A stretch of DNA of 64,000 nt, from contig JAWOGF010000050.1 of NCBI GenBank assembly GCA_046497075.1, forward strand, positions 17,772 to 81,771. Direction: 5' to 3'. The notes below the pieces were generated by a model that saw only the letters and a list, made by a program, of their open reading frames with translations, ran no database searches and had not been told where the DNA came from. Each line of letters starts with the position of its first letter. The first letter of the stretch is position 1. Below are positions 21,847-64,000 of the stretch, one piece after another. The DNA comes from Candidatus Saliniplasma sp. (lineage in GTDB: Archaea; Thermoplasmatota; Thermoplasmata; Halarchaeoplasmatales; Halarchaeoplasmataceae). The position numbers and the translations under genes are program-made.

Positions 21847-23487
21847 ATGCTGATCAATGTAGAAAGTCTGGATAAAACCATACGAGGTAGGAAGCTATTG
21901 AAGGATGTTTCTTTCACTATAATGGAGGGAGAAGGAGTTGGATTTATAGGTCCAAATGGGGAAGGAAAATCTACACTACTGGACATAATCACAGGTAAAG
22001 ATAGCTATTACACGGGAAGTGTAAAAATAAAGAACGGAATTTCCTATTCTTACCTTACTCAAGATATTAGTCTAAGAAATAAGAAAACTGTCGAAGAAGA
22101 ACTCGAAGATGTCGAGGACCCAAATATAGATAAAGTAAAAGAACTCGAAAGATATTCAAAGCTTCTTGAAGAGGATTCAACAGAGGATCAATCTTTAGAA
22201 GTGGCCAAAAAATATTCAGAATTGATGAACGAGATCCATGAGGAGAAAACTGGCAGTTCTAAAGGTATCGCCAAGAATATCCTGATCGAAGACTTTGATT
22301 TCGATGAAGGTATGCTGGATAGAAAGATCGGAACTCTAAGCGGTGGAGAAAAAAGGAAGGTCGAGTTGGCAAACTTTTTCTCTAAATACAAGGATGTAGA
22401 CCTCTTCATAATGGATGAACCTACGAACCATCTAGATCTTGAAGCGAAGAAATACTTTGAAAAGTATATCAACGACTTTAATGGAAGTTATTTTATGGTA
22501 GAACACGACAGGGAATTGCTTGATAACACCGTAGAAAAAATATTGGAGTTGGATGATGGTGAAATAGAAGTATATCATGGAAACTACTCTGATTATGAGA
22601 AGAAAAAAAAGACCCGGACAGTGAACAAACAAATGAAACTTGACCGACTTGAAAAGAAGGTCAAAAGCGAGAAAGAAGCTATCAAGAACTTAGAACTTAA
22701 GGCTAGCGGCGGAGGGGACTATATCAAAAAAGATAGGGTAAGAAGATTGAAAGGGTTAAAGAATAAAAGGGACCGACTGCAAAATGAACTGAGAGCAGAT
22801 GAAGTAGATATCAACCTGAATTTAAAAAAGACACCCGAGGAGTATACTCTTCTAGAAGTTAAAAAATTGACCAAAAGTTACGATGAGTTCGTCTTTGAAA
22901 ACATCACATTCGATATGAAACCTGGAAAAAAGATAGCATTGGTCGGACCTAATGGTTCGGGAAAATCCACATTACTAGAAATAATCTTTGGGAACAATAG
23001 TCCAGACTCCGGAAATGTCGAAGTGGGTAAAAAAACGAAGATAGGTTATCACGCTCAAGAATTTACCCCAGCAAGCGAAGATTATGTAGTACTTGACGAT
23101 ATCTGGGATAAAACCTACGGTGAGCATAGACCGATAACTCACACTACACATCACCTTTCTAAGGAAAAGGAAGAGAAACTAAGGAATTATCTAGGTGGTT
23201 TTGGTTTTACGGGAGATGATGTTTTTAAAGAGGTCTGCGAGCTAAGTGGCGGTGAAAAGACCTTGCTTTCCGTGGCTGAGATGATGTATGGCGGCTGTAA
23301 TCTTATTCTACTGGACGAACCCACCAATAACTTAGACATTGAAAAAAGAAAAAAATTGGAGGAATCTATCAAAGATTATGAAGGCGGTGTTCTTCTAGCA
23401 TCTCATGATAGAAGATTTATAAAAAACGCTTTAGACGAGGCTTGGAGCATCAAAAGAAGTGAGATCGAAAGCTACGTTCTAGATTGA
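21847..23487 (+). CDS. ABC-F-type tandem-NBD ATPase (no transmembrane domain)
   Basis: Two ABC cassettes carry Walker A 'GPNGEGKST' and 'GPNGSGKST' and signatures 'LSGGEKRKVELA' and 'LSGGEKTLLSVA'. A basic/coiled linker 'KKKKTRTVNKQMKLDRLEKKVKSEKEAIKNLE' lies between them. The start may be TTG 21841 or ATG 21847. The TATA-like 'TTTAAATATAAAAAAC' lies about 30 bp upstream. Confidence 0.8.
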   Translation: MLINVESLDKTIRGRKLLKDVSFTIMEGEGVGFIGPNGEGKSTLLDIITGKDSYYTGSVKIKNGISYSYLTQDISLRNKKTVEEELEDVEDPNIDKVKELERYSKLLEEDSTEDQSLEVAKKYSELMNEIHEEKTGSSKGIAKNILIEDFDFDEGMLDRKIGTLSGGEKRKVELANFFSKYKDVDLFIMDEPTNHLDLEAKKYFEKYINDFNGSYFMVEHDRELLDNTVEKILELDDGEIEVYHGNYSDYEKKKKTRTVNKQMKLDRLEKKVKSEKEAIKNLELKASGGGDYIKKDRVRRLKGLKNKRDRLQNELRADEVDINLNLKKTPEEYTLLEVKKLTKSYDEFVFENITFDMKPGKKIALVGPNGSGKSTLLEIIFGNNSPDSGNVEVGKKTKIGYHAQEFTPASEDYVVLDDIWDKTYGEHRPITHTTHHLSKEKEEKLRNYLGGFGFTGDDVFKEVCELSGGEKTLLSVAEMMYGGCNLILLDEPTNNLDIEKRKKLEESIKDYEGGVLLASHDRRFIKNALDEAWSIKRSEIESYVLD

Positions 23488-47039: not shown

Positions 47040-47696
47040 ATGAGAAAATTGATCATCGAAATAAGACCTAAAGAGAAAGCGAAAGAAAGGCAAAGTTCGA
47101 TATTCTCAAAAATACATTCTTATGAAGTCTTGGAAGTTCTGAAGATGGATTATGAAGAGAAAATATATGTCGATCTGATCGAGTTCAAACTGAAAGAGCA
47201 TGTATCCATTGAAAATTTGAAATCCATAGGTAATATGGAGATCCTGAGCATTCTAAAATCTGAAGGGAATAAGCATACTTGTTTGGTGAAAGGTCATCAA
47301 CCTGGGATCCCAAGCGATACATACAAAGAACTCGATCTGAATCTGATCTACACTAGACCTAGTCTGATATCTGAAGATAAGGTCGTTGTCAGCTGTATTG
47401 GCAATCAGGAGAACCTCGTGAGATTCATAGATATAGTGAAAAATATCGGTGAGGTCAGTAAGATGAGATTCAAAAAAGTAGCATACCAAAAGAAATACGT
47501 CCTTTCGGTTTTGACTGAAAAGCAAAAAGAGATACTGGTCGCAGCTTTTGATAGTGGATATTATGGCATCCCTAAAAAGATAAGCAGTGAGAGATTATCA
47601 GAAAAACTAAACATCAGTAAACCCACTCTATTGGAGCATCTAAGAAAGGCAGAAAAACGTATCTTTTCAGAGATATTAGCGGGATATTCAGATTGA
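47040..47696 (+). CDS. HTH_10 (bacterio-opsin-activator-type) transcription regulator
   Basis: The C-terminus 'LTEKQKEILVAAFDSGYYGIPKKISSERLSEKLNISKPTLLEHLRKAEKRIFSEIL' is the haloarchaeal HTH_10 signature. Confidence 0.65.
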   Translation: MRKLIIEIRPKEKAKERQSSIFSKIHSYEVLEVLKMDYEEKIYVDLIEFKLKEHVSIENLKSIGNMEILSILKSEGNKHTCLVKGHQPGIPSDTYKELDLNLIYTRPSLISEDKVVVSCIGNQENLVRFIDIVKNIGEVSKMRFKKVAYQKKYVLSVLTEKQKEILVAAFDSGYYGIPKKISSERLSEKLNISKPTLLEHLRKAEKRIFSEILAGYSD

Positions 47697-48644
47697 TATT
47701 ACGATATTCCCCACAAAACTCCCTTTCGCATAATATCGAAATGCTTCTGGGACTTTCTTCAAGGGGAAGATCCTGTCTACCACAGGTTTTATTTCCCCTT
47801 CCCCATAAAATTTATTCAAAAATTCTAGATCTGATGATTTTGGTTTGTGCAACAGCAGGCGTACTTTTTTACCACCTAGGACCCAAGACCCGAGAAATAT
47901 AGCTTGGATGATCTTAGAATCTGAACCTCCTATAAGCACACATATGCCTTTGGGATTTAATGCACGTTTATATTCAAAAACCGAATGTTGTGCTTTTACA
48001 TCGAGAATGAGATCATAACTCTTGCCTTTTTTAGTGAAATCTTCTTTTGTATAATCGATGACGTGGTCTGCTCCTATCGAGAGACACTTATCAAGCTTCT
48101 CTGAGCTGTCTACTCCAGTAACCTCAGCACCATATGATTTAGCAATCTGAATAGCAACTGTTCCTACACCACCTCCTGCACCATTTATCAAAACCTTTTG
48201 GTTCTCATGGATATTCCCTTTATCTCTTAGACCTTGTAAAGCTAGTACCGATGCTTGCGGTGCTGCTGCCGCTTCCTCGAATGACATTTTAGATGATTTT
48301 TGTCCTAATACTTTTTCTCTACAGCACACGTACTCTGCAAATCCACCAAAGTTATCTCTAGATATGTCTCCAAATATGTCATCACCCGGATGGAATCTCC
48401 TAACATCTTTACCTACTCTTTCTACTGTACCCGATATGTCACATCCTAGTATCTCATATTTTGGTTTTAGACGACCTCCTAAGTTAAAGATAGACTTACC
48501 ACTGAGGAGTTCCCAATCCCATGAATTGATAGATGTAGCTTTGACTCTAACCAGTATTTCATCATCCTTAGGATCAGGTTTTCCTACATCTTTTAGCTGA
48601 AGATTATCCGGTGATCCGTAATCGGTCCAGACAACAGCTTTCAC
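47688..48644 (-). CDS. Zn-independent MDR-superfamily NAD(P)H:quinone oxidoreductase-like protein
   Basis: The N-terminus is 'MKAVVWTDYGSPDNLQLKDVGKPDPKDDEILVRVKATSIN'. The Rossmann segment is 'INGAGGGVGTVAIQIAK'. Confidence 0.8.
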   Translation of the reverse strand: MKAVVWTDYGSPDNLQLKDVGKPDPKDDEILVRVKATSINSWDWELLSGKSIFNLGGRLKPKYEILGCDISGTVERVGKDVRRFHPGDDIFGDISRDNFGGFAEYVCCREKVLGQKSSKMSFEEAAAAPQASVLALQGLRDKGNIHENQKVLINGAGGGVGTVAIQIAKSYGAEVTGVDSSEKLDKCLSIGADHVIDYTKEDFTKKGKSYDLILDVKAQHSVFEYKRALNPKGICVLIGGSDSKIIQAIFLGSWVLGGKKVRLLLHKPKSSDLEFLNKFYGEGEIKPVVDRIFPLKKVPEAFRYYAKGSFVGNIVISI

Positions 48645-49157: not shown

Positions 49158-49523
49158 TCATAGTGATGACTTCGCTACTTTTTTATGACCCGTGTCGACG
49201 TATCCGTGGACTTTGATGATCTGTTCAAATTGATAACGCCTATCGATTGCTAGTCTTACTTCTCCAGCCTTTAAAAGTTCTTTGTGATAGTTCAGACTCT
49301 TAATGTTAGTAACCGCTTCCTCTACAACCATCTTTTTATCTGCAGTAATAGATGCCCACTTCATTCGAAGACGTACAGCAGGTGCAACGATGAGATGTAT
49401 AATCACCCTTTCTTTTTTCAATGTTCTAAGGCGGGACGATTTCGATCTGTTTCCTACAGCTTCAGAGGTAACATCGTGTTTTTCTCCACTTTCAGTGAAA
49501 TCATCCTCAGTGTAATCCATCAC
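49158..49523 (-). CDS. Hypothetical protein
   Basis: It is an ORF only, 121 aa. Confidence 0.4.
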   Translation of the reverse strand: MMDYTEDDFTESGEKHDVTSEAVGNRSKSSRLRTLKKERVIIHLIVAPAVRLRMKWASITADKKMVVEEAVTNIKSLNYHKELLKAGEVRLAIDRRYQFEQIIKVHGYVDTGHKKVAKSSL

Positions 49524-49795: not shown

Positions 49796-52700
49796 TTAAA
49801 AAGGTTTTATTTTCTTTATGGATCTTACGATATCGTGCTCTATAGATGTCGCTATCTGGTTTATAGATAAGTGCTCTTTTACATCGGTATCACTATGTAA
49901 GGACACTATGTTATCTCTGTGCAATTCCCTTATATGATCTCTGTTTAATGTCTCTATATCCTGTTTGTTCGTAGTCTGTGTCTGATCGACTGTTAGATCC
50001 GATAGCACATCTTCCATCACTGCATTTCTATCCTCTGAGCTTGATATCGCTTCGAAACCGAATCCAAAGTATATCACATCGTGTTCCCCACTGTATTCTA
50101 CCGCTGCTCCCTGAGGGCCTGTCCAATAGCCGCCAGGATATGAAGCGTATTCACTTCCGCCGTTTATAGGGTCGATCTCATCTGGATAGTCCTGGTTATC
50201 TGCACCGTCTCCACCTGATATACTGTACTCCTTGCCGTTCATGTTCACTGCTGTTTCACCCGAATCGTCTGCATTGAACGAAGCGTGTAGATAATCGTTG
50301 TAGAACGTATTATCACCGTTATCATCTAGATGGTAACCTATATCCTGTCCTGAGATGAACAGCTTACCGCCGTTATCTAGATAGTTCGAGATTATCCCTT
50401 GTTCAGTCGATGTAATAGTGTTCTGGTAATCGTCACCTGTGAACCATATAACTGCTGTGTAGTCCTGTAAGTCTCCCTGCGATAATTCAGAAGACTGCTT
50501 TAATTCATAACCGTAGCCCGCTGCCTCAACGGCTTCAGTATAATACGATTCGTAGCTATCGCCGTCATCATCGTCTACTATCAGAATCCCTTGAGTTGAA
50601 ACTTCTTCGAGTGTGAAGTTAGTCCATGTGGTTTCACTAGAATTCACACCAAACGACTTGCTTTCACTCTCATAACCGTCTTTCTCTGCGGTTATCTGCA
50701 TGTCTAATTGGTCGAATTCCGTTATGCCTTCCATCTTGTAATGTCCATCTGAATCTGTGTGATCACTGTGATCTGTTCCTTCTACATAGACATGTGCATC
50801 ATCTACTGCAACACCATAATCGTCTTCAACGTAACCCTCTGCTATTCCTGGTTCTGGTTCTTCAATCACTAGTGTTATGTCTTCATAATGGTTCTCAGTT
50901 ATCGTGATACCTTCAACAGTGTCGGTTTTCTCGTCATCGTCTGCCTTTACTGTATACGTGCCCGGGTTCACCTTGAACTCGAATGGGGCTTCCATACCTA
51001 GGCCGGATTGTGTCTCGTCTAACACATTGTCTTGGTCATCATAAAGTGTTACATTTGCTCCGGTAACCGGTTTGTTCATTCCATTAAGATCTTCCTCGAA
51101 GACTCCTCCTATCACAGATGTGTTCTGCAACATTGTAACGTTCATAAATTTGGTCTTAGATTCCTCTATGCTGAAATTTACAGTAGTATCCTGATGATAC
51201 TCAGCTTTCAACTGCATCGTATTGTTGCCTGAAGTTACGTTCATACTGTATTCGCCGTGATAATCTGTCTCTGTCTGATTATCTCCAATTGTTATCTGTG
51301 CTTCCTTGACTTCCTCACCAGTATTATCCGTTACGTATCCTTTTATGATGGCTATTCCTTCCATCGTTTCATTGAGCCATCTTGTATCCCCTTGTACGAT
51401 TCCAACCTGTTTAGTAACATCTATATAACCCGATACCGAAAATGTAACATTGTATGTTCCTTCCGAGATGTCCTGGTACCGATAATAACCACTCCTGTCT
51501 GTCTGTTTCTCACCGTATCCTGGCAAAGATACTGTAGCAGATATCGGATCACTATCACTGTTTTTCACATATCCTTTTAGTGTACCGTTTCCTAGTGGAG
51601 GTAAAACCGCATCTACTTCTACGGTTTCACCGACTTCCACCGTGATATTTTCCTTGTTTATAGTTTCTCTTCCTTCCTTGGAGAACTCCAACATTTCAAC
51701 CGAGTCCCTCGCTTCCATAAAATATGTACCGTCTTCATCTGTTGTAGTCTCGTTGATCACTATATCTGAAGGGAATCCAGGCGCCAATGCTCTGACCGTT
51801 ACACCAGCTAAACCGTTGGTTTGATCAGAACTTTCCCAAGCAGTTCCTTTAATTGTCCCCTTGGTTTGTTCTTCCTCCATCTCTATCGTGACATCCTTAA
51901 ATTCACCTGTCTCAAGTGGTGATATCTCTTTCACCGTCGTTAAATAACCGTCTTTACTCACATGCACATTTATCTGTTTACCTGCAGGGACATGTCTAAT
52001 AGGTTCTCTTTCAATCGCACTGATCTCCGTCATGAACTGTTCTTCACCGGAAACATACTGGTATACCGTCCCTGATACATGATCTAGTTCATCACCGGAT
52101 TGATCTACAACGGTCATATTGATCTGTGGTGGTTCTTCTACTTCTGGTTTAACATCGTTTAACATCTCTTCCATGAAGTCATTCCTTGTGACCTCATCAT
52201 CTATAGCTTCGTATCCGAATGCTAGATAGACTAGATTGTAATCACCATCATAAGTCACACCTGCAGTTTTATCTGAGCCGTATGATGCGTATTCGGTAGC
52301 CCCATTGACCGGATCGATCTCTGAAGGATACTGCTGATTATCAGCTCCATCTCCTCCGGATATACCGAATGAATATCCTTGTCCATTAACGTCCCTTGAG
52401 TCTACAGCATCGGTAACAAAATCTGCTTTCAGATAATCAGAATAGAATGATGTATCCTTAATATCGTATCCAATATCTTGTCCAGATATTATCAGATTCC
52501 CTCCTTGATCCATATAGCTTGCTAGATTGTCCTGGTCTGTTGACGTCAATGTAGTCTGGTAATCGTCACCTGTAAACCATATCACTACCGGATAGGAATC
52601 TAACCTATCTAATGAGGGGGATCCTTGATTTGGAACATCCCATTCAGTGTATGACCAATCGCTCTTTTCAAGAGCATCTGTATAGTAACTCTTGTATGAT

Positions 52701-55700
52701 GACGTTTTATCACCAGCATCTTCTACCAAAAGGACATCCTGCTGCACGTCTCCATCTTTACTAAGCAGATAGAAATCTTGTGTTGCCACCTCTCCGTTTT
52801 TCAGTGTGTGAATCCTCTCCGCAGTGTAATATGATTCTCCGTCTAACTTAATATGCACGTCATTACTTTCTGTTATGTCTATTTCGCCTATCTTGTAATT
52901 CCCGTTTTGATCCGTAGTACTGGAAAACTCGTTGTCTGCTGTTACCGTTATTCCTTCTAGCGGATCTCCATTTGTATCATATACATGACCTTCTACTGTT
53001 GCATGGTCTTTACTTGTAATTGTGTCTTTCACTAATTTATTTGCGCCTTGTTTATCGTCTAAAGTGAAGGTGCCTCTTCCGGATTCAAAGCCATCTTTAC
53101 TTGTAGAATAATGATATTCACCGATTTCCATGTCTTCTATAACAATTTCTCCATTAGAATCCGTGTAATACTCATCATCGGTCTCGATAACATATACCTT
53201 GGCCTGTTCGACAGGTTCCATGTTGCCATCTTTTTTGGTTTCCAATCTAAATGTTACATCTATCGGTTTGAACACTCTAAAATCATAGTCCTGGTCTGAT
53301 TCATTGGATATTACTGTGCGATTTACAGAATTATAATATCCTTCAGCTTCCGCACGGCCACTGTATACTCCTTTTTCAAGAGAAACTGAATATCTACCAT
53401 TATCATCAGTCACTGTAGTTTTCGAACTTATATGAACTGTTGAATCACTCACTGAGTTCTCTACTTCTTTTGTCCCTTCTGATGTATCTTCCTCAGTAAG
53501 ATGGTATACGGTACCTGTGACGTTGAATGTTTTACTCTCTAAAGTCATATTCTGCTTAGTCAACCCGTTCACATCTACCGTAACAGCGGTGTTAAGAAAA
53601 TCCTCATCGTCTGCTACTATCGTATACTGTCCATCTTCTACATCGAAGTAGTAAGAACCGTCTTCACCAGATGTTGTAGAGTTTACTACGTTTCCATCTT
53701 GTTTTAATGTGACCGTTGTGTCTCTGATAGCAACACCGTTTTCATCGACCGTGTACCCTTTTATTCCATTCAGGGTGGTTTGACCGCCTACACCTAGATC
53801 GCTTAAAACTGTATCCATAACATCTGTTCTGTCTTGAGATGTGGATATTGCCTCAAAACCAAATGAGAAGTAGACTAGATCGTAGTCACCGCTGTATGAA
53901 ACCGCTGAAACCTCGTCGCTATCATATGACATATACTGAGAAGCACCGTTAACAGCACTTATCGCCGACGGGTACTGTTGATTATCTGCTCCATCTCCAC
54001 CGGATATACTGAATGACATATCTTGACCAGATATACTTCTAGAGCTAACACTATCGGTCTCAAAATTAGCTCTCAAGTAATTCCCATAGAATGAAGAATC
54101 GCCAATATCATAACCTATATCCTGACCAGTTACGAACAGTTTACCACCGTTATCCATGTATTGTTGTAGATTAGATTGATCTGTAGAAGTTAGGGTTGAA
54201 TCGTAATCATCACCTGTGAACCATATCACTGCATCGTATTGACCTAGAGTGCTCGAGGACGGACTTCCGTCTGAAGACACTGTCCATGTATCATAATCAT
54301 ATCCGCTTAGAGCGTCCGTGAAGTAGCTTTCGTAGGTCTTACCGTCGTCATCATCGACTACGAGTATACTAGATGATGATGAGGAATCCACTGATATTTC
54401 ACTCTGATATGGCTCGAAATTATGTTTGTTGACTGTTATCTTAACATCTTCTGTAGTCTTAACTGTCAATTCAGCATGACCGGATGAGTCTGTTTTCTCT
54501 GTACTGAATACATTATCACCGGTTACGGTCACTCTTGCATCAGCTACTGCATTACCACTGGAATCTGTCACATCAACAGAAAGTGTATCTTGCCCAGCAT
54601 CTATATTGCTGGTATGTGAGACCGAGAATGTGTCAGGAGTGTCAGTCCATATCGGTACTGCTGGATCGCCCATCAAGTTGAACATAAAGTAGTTGTCTCT
54701 ATATCCTGATCCAGATGATGGAACTCCATTATCTTGGATATAATCTACTTTAGAATCCATTAAGGCACTTCCCTGTCTATAGTTCGATTCATTGAATATC
54801 TGTTCATTGAATCTGTAATTTAATCCTGCATCTCCAGTTCCACCCTGATTGTAATTAGAATCGTATACGAACCCCCATGAAATTCTTGAAGCTCCAACGA
54901 AACCTATAGCATACTTTTCGACCGCAGCTTCAGCTAGAGAATCTCCTAAATCAGAATCAAACTCACCAACACTACAGGCATGAGCGAACATCAGTGGCAT
55001 CTTTTGACCATTTGTTGGTCGTTCGTCTGCTTCCCAATAATGCCCACTTCCAACAGTGCTGTTAACTGATCTGCTAATACCACTACTAGATCCGTGACCT
55101 ATCATATTAACGAATGTTTCTCCTTGGCCTATAGATTCATTAAAATCTGATTTCTTCAAACCATCATCGATGTCTGGGCCGATCTGATCAGGTTTTTCAG
55201 GATTCGCCGTATGAAGATGATCAAAAGTATATCCTTGGTCTTCGAAGAACATATCGTTCATATATTCTGTCCAATTATAGGTTCTCAATTTGGTCTTCAG
55301 TGTAGGCGTTCTATCCAAAATTCCGGATCCAGCAACCACACGATTAAACCAGTCACCAGAAGGGGGGTTCTTCTCGTATGTTAATATGTTATCAACCATA
55401 TCATTCATTTCCTGTTCCGTATTTGCTGGTAATCTTCCAACATCCGCTTCAGGATAGAAGTCTTCTTCTCCTTCTTCACCAAACTTACCATCTTTGTCAG
55501 TATCCCAGTTGCCCGTCAATTCCCCATAAAGGAAATCGCTAGCTAGATCTCCGTCATCATCATGGTTACGTAAGTATGCTGTTGGAACAGTATCCACATC
55601 ACCAGCCATCAGAACATAATCTATACCGTACTTGATGTAATAATCTTGTATGCATCTTCTAACCTTTATGAAATCCTCTCCATCACCGTACTCAGAATAG

Positions 55701-56419
55701 ATTTGATCCACGGTAACGACTTCGGTTCTCATGCCGTCTTCTTCTCTCCACTCGACGAGTGGTTCGATTTCTTCAGTGTAATTATCATGAGTTATTATCA
55801 AGTAATCCACTGATGACTCCGCCGCATCATCATTTGTAGTTCTGACCGAATATTCTCCGAAATTTTGTATCGTCTGTTCCATCTCGTAAGTCTCTTCATG
55901 TACTACTTGTGTATCCTGTCCATTGACGTATTCAACAAATATTTCAGCACTGTCAGCATAATAACCTGATTCTTTAACAGGCCTTATTGTCACTGTGATC
56001 ACATTTCTTCCTCTCCAGTTACCCTGTGTATATACTCTCTCCGTAAAGTCATCCGCTGTAAAATCACCTACTTCGCTTTCTTCACCGTTCAATGGTTCGG
56101 GGGCCTTTGCATCAGGTACGTCACTTACATCGATCTTGCCTTTTAGGTTGTACTCGATATTCACGTCTTTAACCTCTGCATCACGTGGTAATTCAAATGT
56201 GTACCCCTTCTGAGGCAACTTTTTATCACCAGGTAATCCGTACAAAGAAAATCCATCCATCTTTACGTAGTCCCCATCCCTCTGAGGCGATGGAAACTCC
56301 ACTTGAAATGACACTTCTTCATTATCCGTTGTAATCCCCACGGTTGCCGCAGGAATCAGGGAAAGAAGCATCATCCCTATCATTAGAGTTATTACTATCT
56401 TTTTATTCATTAATACCAC
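49796..56419 (-). CDS. Giant (2207 aa) secreted gingipain-like (peptidase C25) cysteine protease with a thrice-repeated about 250-aa module and multiple Ig/CarboxypepD_reg-like beta-sandwich domains
   Basis: The signal peptide is 'MKIVITLMIGMMLLSLIPAATVG'. The C25-like catalytic region is 'DYLIITHDNYTEEIEPLVEWREEDGMRTEVV…YVLMAGDVDTVPT…DVGRLPANT', with a candidate His in 'MIGHGSSSG' and Cys in 'FAHACSVGEF'. Three copies follow the pattern '[IL]VVDDDDG.[ST]YESY[FY]T.A…VIWFTGDDY..T[LI]TSTDQ…GG.LF[IV][ST]GQDIGY…ISGGDGADNQ.YP…NG…YASY…FGFEAI'. Confidence 0.8.
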   Translation of the reverse strand: MVLMNKKIVITLMIGMMLLSLIPAATVGITTDNEEVSFQVEFPSPQRDGDYVKMDGFSLYGLPGDKKLPQKGYTFELPRDAEVKDVNIEYNLKGKIDVSDVPDAKAPEPLNGEESEVGDFTADDFTERVYTQGNWRGRNVITVTIRPVKESGYYADSAEIFVEYVNGQDTQVVHEETYEMEQTIQNFGEYSVRTTNDDAAESSVDYLIITHDNYTEEIEPLVEWREEDGMRTEVVTVDQIYSEYGDGEDFIKVRRCIQDYYIKYGIDYVLMAGDVDTVPTAYLRNHDDDGDLASDFLYGELTGNWDTDKDGKFGEEGEEDFYPEADVGRLPANTEQEMNDMVDNILTYEKNPPSGDWFNRVVAGSGILDRTPTLKTKLRTYNWTEYMNDMFFEDQGYTFDHLHTANPEKPDQIGPDIDDGLKKSDFNESIGQGETFVNMIGHGSSSGISRSVNSTVGSGHYWEADERPTNGQKMPLMFAHACSVGEFDSDLGDSLAEAAVEKYAIGFVGASRISWGFVYDSNYNQGGTGDAGLNYRFNEQIFNESNYRQGSALMDSKVDYIQDNGVPSSGSGYRDNYFMFNLMGDPAVPIWTDTPDTFSVSHTSNIDAGQDTLSVDVTDSSGNAVADARVTVTGDNVFSTEKTDSSGHAELTVKTTEDVKITVNKHNFEPYQSEISVDSSSSSSILVVDDDDGKTYESYFTDALSGYDYDTWTVSSDGSPSSSTLGQYDAVIWFTGDDYDSTLTSTDQSNLQQYMDNGGKLFVTGQDIGYDIGDSSFYGNYLRANFETDSVSSRSISGQDMSFSISGGDGADNQQYPSAISAVNGASQYMSYDSDEVSAVSYSGDYDLVYFSFGFEAISTSQDRTDVMDTVLSDLGVGGQTTLNGIKGYTVDENGVAIRDTTVTLKQDGNVVNSTTSGEDGSYYFDVEDGQYTIVADDEDFLNTAVTVDVNGLTKQNMTLESKTFNVTGTVYHLTEEDTSEGTKEVENSVSDSTVHISSKTTVTDDNGRYSVSLEKGVYSGRAEAEGYYNSVNRTVISNESDQDYDFRVFKPIDVTFRLETKKDGNMEPVEQAKVYVIETDDEYYTDSNGEIVIEDMEIGEYHYSTSKDGFESGRGTFTLDDKQGANKLVKDTITSKDHATVEGHVYDTNGDPLEGITVTADNEFSSTTDQNGNYKIGEIDITESNDVHIKLDGESYYTAERIHTLKNGEVATQDFYLLSKDGDVQQDVLLVEDAGDKTSSYKSYYTDALEKSDWSYTEWDVPNQGSPSLDRLDSYPVVIWFTGDDYQTTLTSTDQDNLASYMDQGGNLIISGQDIGYDIKDTSFYSDYLKADFVTDAVDSRDVNGQGYSFGISGGDGADNQQYPSEIDPVNGATEYASYGSDKTAGVTYDGDYNLVYLAFGYEAIDDEVTRNDFMEEMLNDVKPEVEEPPQINMTVVDQSGDELDHVSGTVYQYVSGEEQFMTEISAIEREPIRHVPAGKQINVHVSKDGYLTTVKEISPLETGEFKDVTIEMEEEQTKGTIKGTAWESSDQTNGLAGVTVRALAPGFPSDIVINETTTDEDGTYFMEARDSVEMLEFSKEGRETINKENITVEVGETVEVDAVLPPLGNGTLKGYVKNSDSDPISATVSLPGYGEKQTDRSGYYRYQDISEGTYNVTFSVSGYIDVTKQVGIVQGDTRWLNETMEGIAIIKGYVTDNTGEEVKEAQITIGDNQTETDYHGEYSMNVTSGNNTMQLKAEYHQDTTVNFSIEESKTKFMNVTMLQNTSVIGGVFEEDLNGMNKPVTGANVTLYDDQDNVLDETQSGLGMEAPFEFKVNPGTYTVKADDDEKTDTVEGITITENHYEDITLVIEEPEPGIAEGYVEDDYGVAVDDAHVYVEGTDHSDHTDSDGHYKMEGITEFDQLDMQITAEKDGYESESKSFGVNSSETTWTNFTLEEVSTQGILIVDDDDGDSYESYYTEAVEAAGYGYELKQSSELSQGDLQDYTAVIWFTGDDYQNTITSTEQGIISNYLDNGGKLFISGQDIGYHLDDNGDNTFYNDYLHASFNADDSGETAVNMNGKEYSISGGDGADNQDYPDEIDPINGGSEYASYPGGYWTGPQGAAVEYSGEHDVIYFGFGFEAISSSEDRNAVMEDVLSDLTVDQTQTTNKQDIETLNRDHIRELHRDNIVSLHSDTDVKEHLSINQIATSIEHDIVRSIKKIKPF

Positions 56420-56456
56420 TTGGATGGGGCAAAGGGGGTATTTATAAAGGATTTGT

Positions 56457-56470
56457 CTACAATTTTGTAG
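56457..56470. promoter_or_regulatory. Palindrome CTACAA-TT-TTGTAG in the 118-bp divergent intergenic region, a candidate operator
   Basis: Seen directly. TATA-like TATTTATAAA (56439-56448) and AATATATAATAC (56472-56485) flank it. Confidence 0.35.
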
Positions 56471-56537
56471 TGGAATATATAATACAGTTGTAAAAGGGGA
56501 AAATAAGATATAACAATTCGAGATATACTGGTCGACG

Positions 56538-59500
56538 ATGATACTCTGCTCCTATTCCGATAAGATACTGATCCATCTTTACGGTCAGGATAAGTACCTA
56601 GATTCATTAGTTGTACCGCAGAAACTATCTCAATCGGGGATCGCTGAGTATATAGACTCTGATGTCCCTTATGTGAACCGATTGTTAAAGAAATTGAAAA
56701 AAAATGATCTCGTTAGGTCCGATAAAAGAAAGGTGAGTGAGACACAGAGGAAAAGGAAGGTCTATTTCCTAACTGATAAAGGAAAAAGAATAGCTGATAA
56801 ACTGATCTCCGATCTAGAAGAAGAGGATGTGACCCTAATAAAAGGTAATGAGGAGAGAGAAGTAAAGATTAGGAGTTTGGACGAACACCTGGATGTAGAT
56901 AATCCTATAATGTTTACTTTGAACAATATGGATGAGGAAGACAGATTGATACCTGAAAAAATAAAAACACCGGAAAAAGATATCTTCGTAGATAGGGAAG
57001 AGGAGAAGGATTCGTTAAAAGAATGTCTAGATATAGTGCGTAATCATGGAGCGCGAACAATATTCATTAAAGGGAAGGCTGGAGTAGGAAAAACAAGATT
57101 TGTAATGGACCTGGAGAGCTATTTTAAATCAAGAGGTTTCAAACTGCTAGTTGGTAAATCATACTACGATACGATAGACCCATATCATCCATTCAATGAT
57201 GCTTTTGAAAAAATTCTAGATGACAACGAGAAAAAAAATCAAGTGCCAGGTGTCAATAGCTCTTCCAGCACGTCCAAAGAAACCAGAGATAAAAATTTCT
57301 TAGACTTTCAAAGGAGGGCAAAATTCTATGAAAGTACAAAATGGGTCAAAAAGATTGCATCTGAACAACCCCTTGTAGTTTTTCTAGACAATTTACAATG
57401 GTCAGACAATGCGACACTTAGGTTACTCCATTACATGACAGATAACCTTGGAGAATCACCTGTACTTTTCATAGGCTCCTACAGGCCTGAAGAGGTATTC
57501 TCCAATCACCCACTGATGGATATAAAACGTAGGATGTCTAGAAGGTCGTTGATCAAAGAGATAGATATAGATAGATTTGATCTGAGTGCCACTCAGAAGA
57601 TAATCGAATCGGTAATAGGTGTAAAAGGTGTACCTGAAGATTTTGTAGATAAGATGTACGAGGAAACGGAAGGAAATCCGCTTTATATAAAGAGATCCTT
57701 AAAAACGTTACTCGAGGCAGGCAAGGTCGATCCGTTAAAAAATAAATACCCTAAAGAGGAAATAGAGCGGATCAATCTAAAGGTATTTAGACGTATAATT
57801 AAAAGAAGAGTTGAAAGACTCCCCCAGAAAACTAAGAATATAATTCAGGTGGGAAGTGTTATCGGAGAAAAAGTAGATTTGAAATTACTATCGAAGGTCT
57901 TGGATAAAAATGAGTTTCACCTCCTAGATATCATAGACACCCTTCTAGAAGCTGACCTATGGTATGATGAGCCTTCCAAAAATAGATTTTCGTTCTCCCA
58001 TAAGGTAGTACACGATGTGGTTTACGAGAATATCAATAAATCAAAAAGGATCAGGGTGCACAAGAAGACCGCTGAAAGTTTAAAGGAACTTGAAGAGGAC
58101 CATTTAGACGAATATTTCGCTGCACTCGGTTACCACTATGAAAAATCTAGACGATTTAGGTCAGCGATGAAATATTATCAAAAAGGGGCTGAAAAGGCAA
58201 AGGATATCTACGCAAATGAAGACGCACTGAAGATGTACGAAAAGGCTCTTGATCTAGAGGAAAAGGTAAGTACGGAAGATAGTACAAAGATATCTCTATT
58301 AGAAAATATCGGTGACGTTCATAAAATGTTGGGGAGATATGAGGCGGCCCGTAATTATTACAATAAAGCGCTTAAAGGAACTAGTGACTCAGAGATAAAT
58401 CAAAGGTTTTATAGAAAGATAGCTGACACGTGGGAAGAACAGAGTGATGTTTCTAAGATCATTTCAGCGACTGACAAAGGGCTTTCTTTAGAGGGAAAGA
58501 CGAATGAGGAGACATGTAAACTTTTGAAGAACAAAGGTTGGGCTTATCTCCGTAAAGGCGAATATGAAGAAGCCTACAGGTACTTCGAGGAAGAAAAAGA
58601 GATCGCAGAGAATTTGGAGTCTGAAGAGGATATATCTAGAGCATTACACGATCTAGGAACTTTGGAGTATTACAAGAATAATTTCGATAAAGCGGTCGAA
58701 CTGCTCAAGAGATCGATCGATATAAGAAAGGATATCGGACTCAAGAAGGGTCTGTCGGCCTCTCTTAATAATCTAGGGATGGTTTATTTGAGGGGGGGCG
58801 ATCAAAAAGAAGCATTAAACCACTGGAAAGAAGCATATAGAATCAATGAAGATACCAATGACAGATCAGGGATGGCACATTCTCTTCACAATATCGGCAT
58901 AGTATATTTGAACCAAGGAAATCTTGAAGAAGCCTTAGATAACTATGAGAAAAGTATAGAGATCAGGAAAAAGATCGGTGATAGATCTGGAGAAGGTGTT
59001 TCTCTAGGAAGTATCGGTAACATCTATGTCAAAAAAGGGGAGATCAAAAAAGGACTGGAATATTATGAGGAAGCATTGAGTATATTCGAGGAGATAGGGG
59101 ACAAACTCCGTATCTCTACGTGGCTGGCAAACAAGTCTGATATCTACATCGATAAAGGAGAACTAGATAAGGCAGAGGAGCATCTCCAAAAAGGTTACGA
59201 TAGATCCCGAGAGATAGGCAATGAATTTAACAAAGGTTTCATCATGAATAAGCTTGGGGTGGTATATAGAGAAAGAGGGGAGTTGAGCAAGAGTATCAAG
59301 GTACACAAGGACTCGATAAAGATGGGGGTAGAGATAGAAAACGAAGAGCTATTGATGTCTTCTAAAGTAAACCTTGCAGATGACTATTTGGGAGAGGAAA
59401 AAGTAAGAAAGGCTGATGACCTGTTAAAGGGACTAGAAGAGTGTATTAAAGAGATAGATAACAGGGAGACTGTACTAGATTATTACAGGGTAACAAGCAA

Positions 59501-59738
59501 ATTTTACAGAATCAAAGAAGAATTAGAGAAGGCAGAGGAGAGGCTGGAAAGTGCAGTCGAGATCGCTGATAATATCAATGATAAACGAAAAAAAGCAATA
59601 TTGGACTTCGAATCCGCATTGCTCCTTAAGAAAAAGGGAGAGGTAAAGCGTGCAAAGGACGTATTTCAGGACGCTTTTGATGCTTTTGAATCGATGGGGT
59701 TGGACTTATGGTCGAAAAAAGTAAGTAAAGAGATATAA
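56538..59738 (+). CDS. wHTH plus STAND/AAA_16 P-loop NTPase plus TPR-repeat regulator
   Basis: The N-terminal winged helix is 'IAEYIDSDVPYVNRLLKKLKKNDLVRSDKRKVSETQRKRKVYFLTDKGKRI'. The Walker A is 'GKAGVGKT' and the hhhhDxLQWaD motif is 'VVFLDNLQWSD'. At least 6 TPR units follow (for example LNNLGMVYLRGGDQKEALNHWKEAYRI and LHNIGIVYLNQGNLEEALDNYEKSIEI). Confidence 0.75.
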   Translation: MILCSYSDKILIHLYGQDKYLDSLVVPQKLSQSGIAEYIDSDVPYVNRLLKKLKKNDLVRSDKRKVSETQRKRKVYFLTDKGKRIADKLISDLEEEDVTLIKGNEEREVKIRSLDEHLDVDNPIMFTLNNMDEEDRLIPEKIKTPEKDIFVDREEEKDSLKECLDIVRNHGARTIFIKGKAGVGKTRFVMDLESYFKSRGFKLLVGKSYYDTIDPYHPFNDAFEKILDDNEKKNQVPGVNSSSSTSKETRDKNFLDFQRRAKFYESTKWVKKIASEQPLVVFLDNLQWSDNATLRLLHYMTDNLGESPVLFIGSYRPEEVFSNHPLMDIKRRMSRRSLIKEIDIDRFDLSATQKIIESVIGVKGVPEDFVDKMYEETEGNPLYIKRSLKTLLEAGKVDPLKNKYPKEEIERINLKVFRRIIKRRVERLPQKTKNIIQVGSVIGEKVDLKLLSKVLDKNEFHLLDIIDTLLEADLWYDEPSKNRFSFSHKVVHDVVYENINKSKRIRVHKKTAESLKELEEDHLDEYFAALGYHYEKSRRFRSAMKYYQKGAEKAKDIYANEDALKMYEKALDLEEKVSTEDSTKISLLENIGDVHKMLGRYEAARNYYNKALKGTSDSEINQRFYRKIADTWEEQSDVSKIISATDKGLSLEGKTNEETCKLLKNKGWAYLRKGEYEEAYRYFEEEKEIAENLESEEDISRALHDLGTLEYYKNNFDKAVELLKRSIDIRKDIGLKKGLSASLNNLGMVYLRGGDQKEALNHWKEAYRINEDTNDRSGMAHSLHNIGIVYLNQGNLEEALDNYEKSIEIRKKIGDRSGEGVSLGSIGNIYVKKGEIKKGLEYYEEALSIFEEIGDKLRISTWLANKSDIYIDKGELDKAEEHLQKGYDRSREIGNEFNKGFIMNKLGVVYRERGELSKSIKVHKDSIKMGVEIENEELLMSSKVNLADDYLGEEKVRKADDLLKGLEECIKEIDNRETVLDYYRVTSKFYRIKEELEKAEERLESAVEIADNINDKRKKAILDFESALLLKKKGEVKRAKDVFQDAFDAFESMGLDLWSKKVSKEI

Positions 59739-61573: not shown

Positions 61574-64000
61574 TCATAGTCGTCGTTTCTTATTTTGATA
61601 GGCTGCCAAAGCTATGGATAAGGCCAATAGCATCAGGATCGAAGTGAATCCGGGCGTACCGTTATCCCCGTCACTTTCATCACCACCGTCTTTGTCCACT
61701 TCTTCAATGTTTACCGTCTCTGTCTGATCGCTAAATTCTATAGTATGTTTTCCTTCCTTTTCAAACTCATGAGTATAATCGAGATCCTCCGCCTCACCGG
61801 CTCCTAGTGTTATACTTTCGATCTCCTCACCATCTATCATCAATCCTAAAGATCCTTCAGCGTTTCCGACATTCTCCACATCGGCTGTTATGTTTAATTC
61901 GAGTCCGTTCTCTTCAATACTAAAGTAGGGTACTTCAAATTCTGCTACCAATTTTTCAAAGTTGACTGTTATCGATTTGTTTTCGTCCATCGTGATATTT
62001 ATCTCTAGCCCTTCTTCATCTTCAGGTACATTTCCAGTCCACTCTACGAATTCCCAGCCATCAACGGGCGTAGCTTCTACCATCACAATATCTCCCTCTT
62101 CATAGGTGTGGTTGCCTTCTGAAGGATATATGCTGCCCTCTCCGTCAACCTCTACAGTGAGATCATATGATTGGACTGAACTCTTTTCTTGGAAGAAAGC
62201 TGTTATCTCTTTATCTTCGTTCATCTTTACCGTTATCTCTTCCCCAGTCTTGTCGGTTCCGCTCCACCCGTCGAAGTACCAACCTTTATCTGGGTTGGCA
62301 GTTATCGTCACCTCTTTTCCTTCGATATGGGTATATTTTCCAGGTATAGGTTCAGTAGTGCCGCTTCCCTTTACACCGAGAGTTAAGTCGTACTCCTGTA
62401 GAACCATTACAGTTCTTTCATCCTTGGTGTCATCGCTGCTCACAATCAGATCGTATCCCCCAGCATCACCTTTTTCTGTCTGCCAGATGAAAGAAGCGGA
62501 ATGATCCTCTTCCGGTCCAAGCTGTAGTCCCGAGAAAGCATCCTCGTAAACCTTTCCTCCGTTATCATAAACGGTGAGCACTATATCTTGTGTACCTTCG
62601 CTTATTCCAGTGTTCTCTACTTCATAGTCGACTGTTATTTTATCTTCTTCAACAAAATTTTCTTCTCCTTCAGGTGAAGTGATATCTACATCGAAGTTCG
62701 CTCCTCCTGCTGTAGTGAAACTCCATGTCTTGGATTCGTAATTTTTGTCACCGCATTCAGCCACGGCGTACCACCCGTATGTAGTGTTGGGTTTTAAATC
62801 GTCCCAAGTAGTTCTAGCATAATCACCGCTGGATACTCTTTCTTCAGACCCTATGAAACCCCCGTCGGAACCGTAGAAATCGATGTCCATCTCTTCACCA
62901 TTTTGGTGACCGACGATCACGCTCAATTCTGTGTCCAAACCCACTCCTTCATTTCCATCTTTTGGCTCAGGGAACTTCGGGCTGTTATCGTGGTGTATAC
63001 TCAGAGTGGCCACAGCATATTCATCTTCCTCCCCGTCTATCTGTGCGATCAAACCAACAGATGAAAATTCATATGTGGTTTCAGTCATGTCTTCGGCTAT
63101 AGGCACCTCTATAACATTTTCAAAATATCCATTTTCATCGGTAGTAGTTTCCCATCTCTCTCGCGGTTCCGCTCCCTGACAGATATCGATGATAACGTGC
63201 TCATTAGCTTTATCCGGAAATTGTCCTGAAAGAGTGACTTCCTCTCCGACTTGTGCTTCTGATGGTTCTATAGATAATTCGTTGGTGGTCTCATGGACCT
63301 GATAGCCCGTGAGACTCCTTCTCATATCCCCCTGCTCTGTATGGCTGACCTCTTTCACTGGCATCCCGATGTCCGGGCTGTACCATATCTCTTGAGTTCC
63401 ATTACTATCACCTGATACAGTGTTATTTATGTGATAACATTCGAACTCACCAGCCGCTACCTGGACAGTTTCCTTAGTATCCACAGTGGTTTCACTTAGA
63501 GAGCTTGTATTTCCCTCAGTATGATTCTCCTGTGTATTATCGCCAACTTCGATCCTATTGTACCCCCAATTATGTATGGTTGTGTTGGCCCAAAATGAAT
63601 CGCCGATATTTACCGGGGAATCATAAGTTTCCGCTGGAGGACTGTAACTCTGATTCACGTATGACCATCCTTCTAGTTCACCGAAGGCCCCTTCGCCATA
63701 ATAATATCTCAACTTACGGCGTTCAACAACAGCTAGATCACTCATCCTCAGCAGATTATAACCTTCAATATGGCCTCCCTTGATATCTATATTAGTGGAT
63801 GATGTTTCTATATAACCATCAACGACCTCACCTTCTATGGAGATATTATACGCTAAATATGTCTCCCCCTCGTGGTCGATTTGCTCTATCGAGTCGACTG
63901 TGAAGTTGAGTACATCCTCGAAGTGCAAATATTGCTCCTCTTCTGTATTATTCGTCCAAACGAGATTATCATATGTCCAATAACTACCTATCTCCCAGGT
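61574..64000 (-). CDS. Cell-surface protein with CARDB-like and InlB-B-repeat-like domains and a PGF-CTERM archaeosortase sorting signal; N-terminus lies beyond the window
   Basis: The C-terminus 'GTPGFTSILMLLALSIALAAYQNKKRRL' is the PGF motif plus a TM helix plus a basic tail. The repeats '…GSGTTEPIPGKYTHIEGKEVTITANPDKGWYFDGWSG' occur twice. The segment is acidic and T/S-rich. There is no signal peptide at the in-window Met, so the true start lies beyond position 64000. Confidence 0.75.
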   Translation of the reverse strand, partial: TWEIGSYWTYDNLVWTNNTEEEQYLHFEDVLNFTVDSIEQIDHEGETYLAYNISIEGEVVDGYIETSSTNIDIKGGHIEGYNLLRMSDLAVVERRKLRYYYGEGAFGELEGWSYVNQSYSPPAETYDSPVNIGDSFWANTTIHNWGYNRIEVGDNTQENHTEGNTSSLSETTVDTKETVQVAAGEFECYHINNTVSGDSNGTQEIWYSPDIGMPVKEVSHTEQGDMRRSLTGYQVHETTNELSIEPSEAQVGEEVTLSGQFPDKANEHVIIDICQGAEPRERWETTTDENGYFENVIEVPIAEDMTETTYEFSSVGLIAQIDGEEDEYAVATLSIHHDNSPKFPEPKDGNEGVGLDTELSVIVGHQNGEEMDIDFYGSDGGFIGSEERVSSGDYARTTWDDLKPNTTYGWYAVAECGDKNYESKTWSFTTAGGANFDVDITSPEGEENFVEEDKITVDYEVENTGISEGTQDIVLTVYDNGGKVYEDAFSGLQLGPEEDHSASFIWQTEKGDAGGYDLIVSSDDTKDERTVMVLQEYDLTLGVKGSGTTEPIPGKYTHIEGKEVTITANPDKGWYFDGWSGTDKTGEEITVKMNEDKEITAFFQEKSSVQSYDLTVEVDGEGSIYPSEGNHTYEEGDIVMVEATPVDGWEFVEWTGNVPEDEEGLEINITMDENKSITVNFEKLVAEFEVPYFSIEENGLELNITADVENVGNAEGSLGLMIDGEEIESITLGAGEAEDLDYTHEFEKEGKHTIEFSDQTETVNIEEVDKDGGDESDGDNGTPGFTSILMLLALSIALAAYQNKKRRL

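Follow-up and report, generated by a model that had tools for sequence, protein, structure and literature searches.

A predicted gingipain-type protease with a triplicated GATase-like module, divergently paired with a putative STAND regulator in a halophilic archaeon

How might a halophilic archaeon build, target and control a very large extracellular protease? In sediments, uncultured archaea are believed to turn over detrital protein by means of extracellular peptidases. The question is raised by a pair of divergent genes, one for a giant protease of family C25 with a signal peptide, the other for a regulator made up of a winged helix-turn-helix (wHTH) domain, a STAND P-loop NTPase and tetratricopeptide repeats (TPR). 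Both lie in a stretch of 64,000 nucleotides from a metagenome-assembled genome (MAG) of Candidatus Saliniplasma sp. (GCA_046497075.1, contig JAWOGF010000050.1, positions 17,772 to 81,771); this whole stretch is referred to below as the window, and coordinates are counted from its first letter. The account that we favor, and hold to be probable though well short of assured, is that of a secreted gingipain-type zymogen with accessory modules, together with a STAND protein that activates its promoter.

49796..56419, minus strand: gene of the giant secreted C25 protease (whole gene)
56538..59738, plus strand: gene of the wHTH-STAND-TPR regulator (Pfam)

Both reading frames stand exactly as first annotated. 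The protease frame, 49796-56419(-), gives 2207 amino acids (aa) from a GTG start at 56419, from which the intergenic gap of 118 bp between the divergent genes is counted; the public calls, on two Logan contigs and in the NCBI MAG, place the start at the ATG at 56410, which gives 2204 aa. The regulator frame, 56538-59738(+), encodes 1066 aa. NCBI labels the protease a 'carboxypeptidase regulatory-like domain-containing protein' (MFO7792416.1) and the regulator a 'tetratricopeptide repeat protein' (MFO7792417.1). As for the host, Candidatus Saliniplasma is a genus within a halophilic order known from MAGs of soda-saline lake sediment, and a salt-in strategy and a heterotrophic metabolism have been inferred for the same order from genomes (PMC11332174). 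The initial annotation, which was made from the sequence alone, had supposed a symbiotic lineage in which the protease might matter for host or prey interaction. This supposition fell away, since the MAG is that of a genome-described salt-in heterotroph with no symbiosis documented. An origin in Nanohaloarchaeota or another symbiont group was rejected as well.

What kind of enzyme is the protease? Its N-terminal part is composed as follows:

56339..56410, minus strand: signal peptide MNKKIVITLMIGMMLLSLIPAATVG, aa 4-27 (read from the sequence, with a hydrophobicity scan)
55820..56338, minus strand: prodomain-like beta region, aa 28 to about 200 (Foldseek of the model, collinearity with the homolog P0080)
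54653..55804, minus strand: Peptidase_C25 catalytic domain, aa 206-589 (Pfam, RgpB alignment, dyad conservation, fold)
55094-55096, minus strand: codon of the catalytic His442, in the GHG motif, aa 441-443
54974-54976, minus strand: codon of the catalytic Cys482, in the AHAC motif, aa 479-482
54365..54592, minus strand: Ig-like domain, aa 610-685 (Pfam Big_1, aa 610-663, and CarboxypepD_reg; the model aligns with 4rbm)

The signal peptide that had been read at the start of the protein is typical of the Sec type by reading and by hydrophobicity scan, without a lipobox and without a twin-arginine motif, and the protease would be exported via Sec as a zymogen. The proposal of a C25-like protease with a His/Cys dyad gained from a full-profile Pfam match, alignment to RgpB, conservation among homologs and a match of the fold. 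PF01364 (Peptidase_C25) is matched at an E value of 9.7e-62 and 209.8 bits (cut-off 23), over profile positions 1-373 of 374. When the protein is compared by HMMER with PDB sequences (4ief_B, 1cvr_A), its segment NMIGHGSS aligns with NYTGHGSE, and MFAHACSVGEF with IFDVACVNGDF, of RgpB; the two RgpB segments hold the catalytic His and Cys of gingipain R. In an alignment of 33 C25 homologs His442 is kept in 31 and Cys482 in all 33, and the entire protease has two cysteines only, at positions 256 and 482. Its composition is strongly acidic (19% D+E vs 6% K+R). The predicted C25 head would on these grounds be expected to be proteolytically active.

An AlphaFold2 model of aa 28-885 (mean pLDDT 72, pTM 0.62) bears out the assignment at the level of the fold, which is of the caspase-hemoglobinase alpha/beta type. 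In Foldseek searches it matches RgpB (1cvr) at an E value of 1.2e-26 with a TM-score on the target (TMt) of 0.81, and the catalytic plus IgSF domains of Kgp (4rbm) with a TMt of 0.74; the Ig-like domain follows directly on the catalytic domain, at the position of the gingipain IgSF domain. Because the confidence of the model is only moderate, the packing of the domains cannot be read from it. The N-terminal beta region, in which pLDDT is patchy over aa 28-200, matches the prodomains of RgpB and Kgp (4ief_A/C, 5mun; probability 1.0, TMt 0.41-0.44), and it is collinear with P0080, whose counterpart region matches Pfam Propeptide_C25; in the Pfam scan of the window protease Propeptide_C25 was not matched directly. 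Taken together, the RgpB, Kgp and prodomain matches suggest that the head is laid out as a complete gingipain zymogen, in which a probable prodomain precedes the catalytic and Ig domains; removal of the prodomain would activate the protease. The nearest C25 relatives reach only 25-30% identity, in MAGs annotated as Promethearchaeota and Thermoplasmata, and the window protease is its own representative in a library clustered at 50% identity. Judged by its sequence, it is a very divergent further member of the known family C25.

Family membership leaves room for another function. PorU, the sortase of the type IX secretion system (T9SS), also belongs to family C25, and the window protein partially matches its NCBIfam model (NF033707, 93.6 bits). 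The C25 domain might then be a PorU-like sortase or processing peptidase that cuts other surface proteins and attaches them, with the stalk positioning it in the envelope. The score, however, is far under the NF033707 cut-off of 420, and the T9SS is not known from archaea. Moreover, the best structural matches are the catalytic domains of RgpB and Kgp with their prodomains, the protein has no membrane anchor that would retain it at the envelope, and the STAND-paired genes of relatives, described below, encode ordinary S8 subtilases. A PorU-like role is thus very improbable.

The favored reading of a gingipain-type zymogen must also account for what follows the enzymatic head, which is laid out as alternating modules and beta-sandwiches:

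53780..54364, minus strand: module copy 1, aa 686-880, or 679-885 at its widest (repeat alignment, model, profile search)
52766..53767, minus strand: four CarboxypepD_reg beta-sandwiches, aa 885-1218 (Pfam)
52145..52738, minus strand: module copy 2, aa 1228-1425, or 1220-1432 at its widest (repeat alignment)
50609..52123, minus strand: second beta-sandwich stalk, aa 1433-1937 (four CarboxypepD_reg copies recognized)
49985..50593, minus strand: module copy 3, aa 1943-2145, or 1937-2152 at its widest (repeat alignment)
49799..49972, minus strand: His-rich hydrophilic C-terminal tail, 58 aa (hydrophobicity scan)

The head would thus be continued by some 1,500 residues of non-enzymatic stalk. Pfam finds ten CarboxypepD_reg stretches across the protease, or about ten beta-sandwiches; two stretches of the second stalk, at about aa 1433-1550 and 1764-1858, have no domain recognized by the Pfam-based assignment. 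Beta-sandwiches had been described after each of the three modules, and for the third copy this proved wrong, the 58-aa hydrophilic tail standing there instead. The hydrophobicity scan shows no transmembrane (TM)-like window after aa 13, and the C-terminus has neither a TM anchor nor a PGF-CTERM. The latter had been reported missing from the outset, and it is indeed missing: the tail is hydrophilic, and a PGF-CTERM hidden downstream by a frameshift was sought in the other frames and none was found. Because there is no C-terminal anchor, we propose that the enzyme is probably released from the cell and would scavenge extracellular protein.

What, then, are the modules? The triplication is clear, with three copies that are 53-54% identical pairwise and contain every motif for which they had been singled out (among them VIWFTGDD, GQDIGY, SGGDGADNQ and FGFEAI); only the size needed correction, from about 250 to about 200 aa each. 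A structure model of the module, built with 26 homologs, is confident (pLDDT 90.7, pTM 0.90), and in a Foldseek search of the PDB it shows the fold of class I glutamine amidotransferases (GATases), at a probability of 1.0, a TM-score of about 0.6 and 9-16% identity, as had been guessed when a GATase-like or flavodoxin-like fold was suggested. Nearest in fold are GATase-like domains that have no catalytic role in the glycosidases and glycosyltransferases to which they belong (7vkw, 6jow GlmA, 7oms); other close ones are ThuA-like proteins (4jqs, 4pxy) and STM3548 (2gk3), and thereafter come true GATases, namely GMP synthetase and the PabA-type and Pdx2 GATase domains. A search of the PDB with the module sequence alone gave a beta-agarase carbohydrate-binding module as its best match (E value 1.2), which is not meaningful; it was the predicted structure that gave the fold. 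Within copy 2 (aa 1267-1314, some 46-48 residues of the central beta-alpha-beta element) there are weak Pfam matches to DUF4159 (33 bits, profile positions 43-88 of 202) and to GLMA_2nd (27.8 bits), which in sequence terms suggest a distant relationship to the module and not membership. In scans of the window protein and of other members, no Pfam or NCBIfam model covers the module.

Since the superfamily of this fold is rich in hydrolases, the module could itself be an enzyme, a GATase1-superfamily amidase or peptidase of the S51, C56 or gamma-glutamyl-hydrolase kind that uses a non-canonical nucleophile and acts on the products of the protease head. In favor of this, the Glu at the position of the triad Glu is kept (FGFE), and conservation exceeds that of the catalytic domain: copy 1 is 56% identical to a copy from Anaerolineae, vs at most about 30% for the C25 head, so that the module is better conserved than its enzyme. 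The Cys-His-Glu triad of class I GATases is, however, not retained. There is no Cys in any of the three modules; the nucleophile elbow reads G-Q-D-I-G, with a third residue that varies among Asp, Gly, Ala and Asn in homologs; and the position of the triad His is a Gly, which leaves only the Glu. Across 347 distinct family members the sole conserved polar residues are D690, Q766, E856 and R864, and no Ser, Cys or His reaches 80% conservation. The closest structures, moreover, are non-catalytic glycosidase copies and ThuA-like proteins. A catalytic module is accordingly hard to believe in.

How common is the module? A word-indexed search, which returned 26 short metagenomic hypotheticals, suggested a rare orphan, and this was overturned by an exhaustive profile search, in which the family comprises 8,656 clusters at 50% identity with E values of at most 1e-3, and 2,142 with E values of at most 1e-30. 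What had looked like an oddity of one protein accompanies peptidases of many classes and, as an accessory domain, is very widespread. Among the top 145 profile matches, 23 have a C25 domain N-terminal to the module, and Pfam scans of other members place it C-terminal to Peptidase_C1, S8 and M28, and likewise to M14, C11, M6, the CBAH Ntn-hydrolase and Omp28. In many cases FlgD_ig and Por_Secre_tail sorting domains, or a dockerin, come after it. Local profile searches of the 80 loci retained assigned module-bearing open reading frames (ORFs) to the S8 (14), C25 (8), C1 (3) and M28 (1) families. A scan of GTDB species genomes gave 234 relatives, with bacterial hosts in Anaerolineae, Zixibacteria, WOR-3, KSB1, Cloacimonadota, Eisenbacteria, Gemmatimonadota and Ignavibacteriales, and archaeal hosts in Methanothrix/Methanocrinis, Nitrososphaerota and Thermoplasmatales. 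The module is thus found at the C-terminal side of secreted peptidases, bacterial and archaeal, from at least eight families with no relation to one another, and it would appear to be a promiscuous non-catalytic accessory domain. Some module proteins of the C1 (papain) family (P0069, P0108) have a built-in inhibitor, a chagasin-type I42 domain at the N-terminus of the same chain.

The module may bind polymeric or particulate material in a multivalent manner, or it may self-associate as the GATase-like oligomerization domains of glycosidases do. In the window protease, the three copies on their beta-sandwich spacers would provide a multivalent hold on such a substrate or assemble the protein into multimers. 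A narrower version holds that the module is mainly an oligomerization domain, like the GATase-like trimerization domain of GH42 beta-galactosidases; the three copies would fold back into an intramolecular pseudo-trimer, or cross-link molecules, and would not bind substrate. The top folds are in keeping with this, since they are GATase-like domains of multimeric glycosidases (7vkw, 6jow, 7oms) and oligomeric ThuA-like and STM3548 proteins, as is the presence of three copies in the window protease. Most family members, however, have a single copy, the range being 1 to 6. Oligomerization as the main role is possible, and we give it the lesser weight; it overlaps in any case with the favored account, which covers binding and self-association alike. 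Two considerations tell against a binding role: the high conservation of the module could equally reflect a catalytic or chaperone role, and its role is read only from fold and context. No description of the module was found in the literature searched, and it is a known fold in an apparently undescribed role.

How would expression of such a protease be controlled? The regulator encoded on the other side of the intergenic region has the following domains:

56538..56822, plus strand: PadR-like wHTH, aa 1 to about 95 (Pfam PadR, PDB profile search, homologs)
56985..57473, plus strand: AAA_16 P-loop NTPase, aa 150-312 (Pfam, 58.5 bits)
58275..59735, plus strand: TPR sensor array, aa about 580-1065 (Pfam TPR_12 in 7 stretches, TPR_MalT at 75 bits)

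The wHTH-STAND-TPR architecture that had been proposed is upheld by the matches to all three parts. When the N-terminal 150 aa are scanned alone, Pfam PadR is matched at 28.1 bits (cut-off 27). The domain is kept in 8 homologs, with a conserved wing motif RKRKVYxLTxKG; the wHTHs of these homologs match HTH_Crp_2 in 6 and PadR in 5 of the 8, the MarR family is also matched, and a PDB profile search with the wHTH leads to the DNA-binding domains of NtcA, CRP and MepR (MarR). The closest full-length homologs retain the wHTH. In the NTPase, close homologs keep both Walker A (GKAGVGKT) and Walker B (VVFLD) unchanged, the invariant residues including G179, G182, G184, K185, T186 and D284, and the STAND core runs to about aa 560. 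The TPR region matches, in a PDB search, the TPR sensor of PH0952 (6mfv, 33 bits). From the domain assignment, the regulator is predicted to bind DNA. In another MAG (L097:4992-14721), three tandem AAA_16-TPR STAND paralogs lie beside a NosD/beta-helix protein and a ferritin-like gene, a local expansion of the regulator family.

Is the pairing of this regulator with a giant secreted protein a recurrent one? Seven wHTH-bearing loci could be compared, the window and six others, of which five (L100 to L104) came from a metagenome scan and belong to one soda-lake sediment metagenome, in which there is a Saliniplasma-like contig as well:

Window: C25 protease, 2207 aa, divergent to the regulator
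L099: PQQ beta-propeller protein, 2015 aa, divergent to the regulator homolog
L100: NosD/beta-helix protein, 1222 aa, divergent to the regulator homolog and followed on the same strand by an S8 subtilase, 2017 aa
L101: S8 subtilase, 1340 aa, divergent to the regulator homolog
L102: N-terminal part of an S8 giant that runs off the end of the contig, divergent; match to L100b of locus L100 at an E value of 1e-97
L103: no giant neighbor beside the regulator homolog
L104: S8 subtilase, 2458 aa, with one copy of the GATase-like module, divergent to the regulator homolog

The regulator thus divergently adjoins the gene of a giant secreted protein in 6/7 loci, and five of these units contain a protease. 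All of the giant neighbors have signal-peptide-like N-termini.

At their other ends these giants differ from the window protease. Several of those paired with STAND genes in relatives end in clear PGF-CTERM motifs (…IPGFTTMLLILGVVIAIAIYHKKEK, …IPGFTILLLVPSVILAIAIYHKRLQ) or in single TM anchors; they comprise the giants of L104 (162-7535(-)) and L102 (4992-11705(-)), in which PGF-CTERM is present, and the three giants of L100. The lineage therefore seems to use archaeosortase-type anchoring, which is not present in the window protease. The S8 giant of L101 (680-4699(-)) and the PQQ-propeller giant of L099 (1680-7727(-)) have in common a C-terminal domain of about 90 aa (…GW.MVG.PS…GYW..N…WTV.Y) that has no Pfam match and may be a common attachment or sorting module.

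If the regulator acts on the protease gene, a site for it would be expected between the two. Two elements are present in the intergenic region:

56457..56470, no strand: palindrome CTACAA-TT-TTGTAG with the core TACA-N4-TGTA, candidate operator (6-nt perfect arms)
56441..56448, no strand: TATA-like TTTATAAA, putative protease promoter (read from the sequence)

The palindrome had been picked out at first annotation, and its arms are indeed perfect over 6 nt. It lies 9 bp upstream of the TATA-like element, which in turn has its center some 25 nt ahead of the GTG at 56419 and some 34 nt ahead of the ATG at 56410; the promoter assignment is based on the known geometry of archaeal promoters. By that geometry, the palindrome would occupy the position expected for an archaeal activator site. 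TACA-N4-TGTA has 2 matches in the 64-kb window vs 0.54 expected. In 2.35 Mb of unrelated loci there are 10 matches, and 2 of these fall inside the regulator/giant intergenic region of L100, where they stand side by side (TACACATGTGTA and TACACAAGTGTA) and about 0.0004 would be expected. The intergenic region of L101 has the same half-sites in everted order (CTTGTAG-AA-CTACAAG).

These observations suggest how the system might work. Binding of a ligand to the TPR array would relieve autoinhibition of the regulator, as in MalT or PH0952, and exchange of ADP for ATP would then drive its multimerization. Dimers of the wHTH would bind TACA-N4-TGTA upstream of the protease TATA box and would activate, rather than repress, the protease promoter, and the regulator would probably also activate its own promoter. 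A tempting idea is that proteolysis itself supplies the ligand in the form of a peptide, in which case the induction would be feed-forward. Taken further, the module would be a major unrecognized class of protease-associated domain with one common function across at least eight peptidase families, such as the capture of polymeric substrate or the assembly of multi-enzyme particles. In halophilic Thermoplasmatota, the wHTH-STAND-TPR family would sense the products of proteolysis with its TPR array, in the manner of RRNPP regulators, and induce individual giant protease genes via operators of the TACA-N4-TGTA type, in a feed-forward circuit for scavenging protein. This generalization is speculative, and we regard it as doubtful.

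A good deal weighs against the pair as a dedicated unit, however. The closest relatives, identified by UbiA and TldD proteins in the same 90%-identity clusters as those of the window, have the flanks of the locus conserved, one flank being PHP...SHMT...TldD and the other UbiA with a CARDB/Flg_new_2 protein, and between their TldD and UbiA blocks the pair is absent. The gap is filled by other genes, so that 45.6-60.2 kb of the window is a strain-specific segment at a synteny break, and because the pair is absent at the syntenic site, orthologous synteny cannot be demonstrated. At 90% identity neither the protease nor the regulator clusters with any other protein, and no relative of the protease exceeds about 30%. 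Among the loci compared, L103 has no giant, the divergent neighbors in L099 (PQQ propeller) and L100 (NosD) are not proteases, and the five loci from one metagenome may be paralogs within a few genomes. Distant homologs that have no wHTH do not adjoin giants. Within 10 kb of module-bearing genes in other phyla, a homologous STAND NTPase was found at 0/80 loci, which speaks against a general association of STAND proteins with the module across phyla. As to the operator, the palindrome in L104 is weak and the L099 intergenic region has CGCACATGTGCG, a different sequence in the same 12-bp frame; because the motif was defined post hoc from the window, L100 is the sole clean independent test, though a strong one.

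Could the adjacency then be coincidental? A rearranged, strain-specific segment might have brought the two genes together, with the STAND protein regulating another target or having a non-transcriptional role, for example in conflict or defense. The missing pair in relatives, the gene fragment at the synteny break and the 0/80 loci all fit such a view, as do the distant homologs, which occur in tandem paralog arrays or beside housekeeping genes. Against it stand the divergent giant neighbors in 6/7 wHTH-bearing loci, the related palindromes, with the doubled copy placed precisely in the intergenic region of L100, and the nature of the N-terminal effector, which is a DNA-binding wHTH and not a nuclease or protease effector. 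We judge coincidence to be unlikely. The dedicated regulator/effector pair of the initial annotation is thus retained in part: it is found neither at the syntenic site of the closest relatives nor at the 80 module loci, but on contigs of related halophilic archaea wHTH-bearing homologs are divergently paired with giants, mostly S8, and a related palindrome recurs in their intergenic regions. The literature searched contains no recurrent link between STAND regulators and giant secreted protease genes with a common operator. Nor does it describe the accessory module or this pairing of regulator and protease, both of which are only moderately surprising.

Several smaller observations concern the segment and its surroundings. 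For an ORF of 121 aa (49158-49523(-)), the match to a zinc-type alcohol dehydrogenase (ADH) is confined to the C-terminal part of that enzyme; the ORF adjoins a flavodoxin gene and a full-length ADH gene (47688-48644) and is probably what remains of a gene at the border of the strain-specific segment. On the right, 61574-63928(-) encodes the secreted CARDB/Flg_new_2 (InlB B-repeat) protein, of 784 aa vs 881 aa in relatives (L006-L013); its gene adjoins that of the UbiA prenyltransferase in all close relatives and marks the right-hand edge of conserved synteny. On two related, bacterial-looking contigs (L003:4301-8834 and L004:717-4299), a truncated module (P0015) fused to an unrelated N-terminus lies directly downstream of a STAND gene. 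The STAND proteins have the domains BTAD-AAA_16-TPR (L003) and AAA_16-TPR (L004), and their NTPase cores are homologs of the core of the window regulator, at 62.7 and 63.5 bits. Such a linkage may be a coincidence or a second instance, and is treated here as anecdotal.

The rest of the window codes for TldD/PmbA peptidases, an amidohydrolase/Xaa-Pro-dipeptidase-like protein, serine hydroxymethyltransferase (SHMT) and a HypD-type glycyl-radical enzyme, genes that are consistent with the use of amino acids and peptides. The glycyl-radical enzyme (24495-26918(+)) scores 1125 bits, over the equivalog cut-off for trans-4-hydroxy-L-proline dehydratase, and an ABC-F family ATPase (21841-23487(+)) scores 362 bits vs a ribosomal-protection-like ABC-F model. 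Both functions are typically bacterial, and the dehydratase fits an anaerobic, protein- or collagen-degrading lifestyle. A 592-aa ORF (28004-29782(-)) reaches 313.8 bits with TIGR00362 (bacterial DnaA), slightly below the cut-off of 343.9; a bacterial-type DnaA AAA+ homolog is unusual for an archaeon, and the genome is otherwise of Thermoplasmatota. A bacterial origin of the window, which this ORF had suggested, was rejected. The Pfam matches of a 1345-aa ORF (8193-12230(+)) are solely of coiled-coil type (RNase_Y_N, crescentin rod), and its region has an extreme GC skew of +0.52 and AT skew of +0.50. Rfam and tRNA scans of the window gave no matches.

What would such a locus add? On the favored account it holds the complete gingipain-type zymogen of a halophilic archaeon, remote from any characterized C25 enzyme. 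Defining the module family, with its thousands of clusters, would better annotate the secreted proteases of many candidate phyla. The pair is also a candidate for a design of one regulator and one protease with a defined operator, and would count as one of the earliest cases in which an archaeal STAND transcription factor is given a concrete target.

How does the locus compare with systems already known? The module shares its fold, with the Cys nucleophile lost, with the non-catalytic GATase-like domains of ThuA-like proteins (4JQS/4PXY), STM3548 (2GK3), GlmA (second domain, 6JOW; Pfam GLMA_2nd), the Ignavibacterium beta-1,2-glucosyltransferase (7VKW) and DUF4159. It differs from them in sequence (9-16% identity), in its own motifs, in being extracellular and in its fusion to peptidases instead of glycosidases. 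As to the protease, extracellular C25 and C11 peptidases have been predicted for related sediment archaea and are thought to degrade detrital protein (PMC6461988). These enzymes of Thermoprofundales/MBG-D, Bathyarchaeia and Promethearchaeota are likewise archaeal secreted clan-CD cysteine peptidases, but they have 540-700 aa and at most 30% identity, whereas the window protease has 2,207 aa, a triplicated module and a halophilic acidic composition.

For the regulator, PH0952 of Pyrococcus horikoshii (6MFV) offers the closest parallel in layout; it is a predicted transcription factor and MalT homolog with a wHTH effector, nucleotide-binding oligomerization domain (NOD), arm and TPR sensor, and in MalT release of autoinhibition by the inducer and multimerization are established (PMC6468293). 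The order wHTH-NOD-TPR is the same in the window regulator, but the sequence match is confined to the TPR region, the wHTH of PH0952 is ArsR-like and not PadR-like, and MalT has a C-terminal LuxR HTH. The AfsR (SARP) and LAL proteins of actinobacteria are a second point of comparison. AfsR likewise combines an N-terminal DNA-binding domain, a STAND NTPase and TPRs, and homologs of this kind are matched by the window NTPase core; these proteins differ in their OmpR/BTAD or LuxR DNA-binding domain, in being bacterial and in controlling secondary metabolism.

For the enzyme itself, the comparison is also with the gingipains RgpB and Kgp of Porphyromonas gingivalis (1CVR, 4IEF, 4RBM, 5MUN). As in these, an Ig-like domain follows the catalytic domain, which a probable prodomain precedes; the His/Cys motifs are the same, and the fold matches with TM-scores of 0.74-0.83 on the target. 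In each case a large extension with no catalytic role makes up the C-terminal part, and each is secreted, which for the window protease is a prediction. They differ in sequence, at 16-18% identity, and in the archaeal host of the window protease. The latter also lacks the T9SS C-terminal domain and the hemagglutinin/adhesin domains of the gingipains, and has in their place CarboxypepD_reg spacers and three GATase-like modules.

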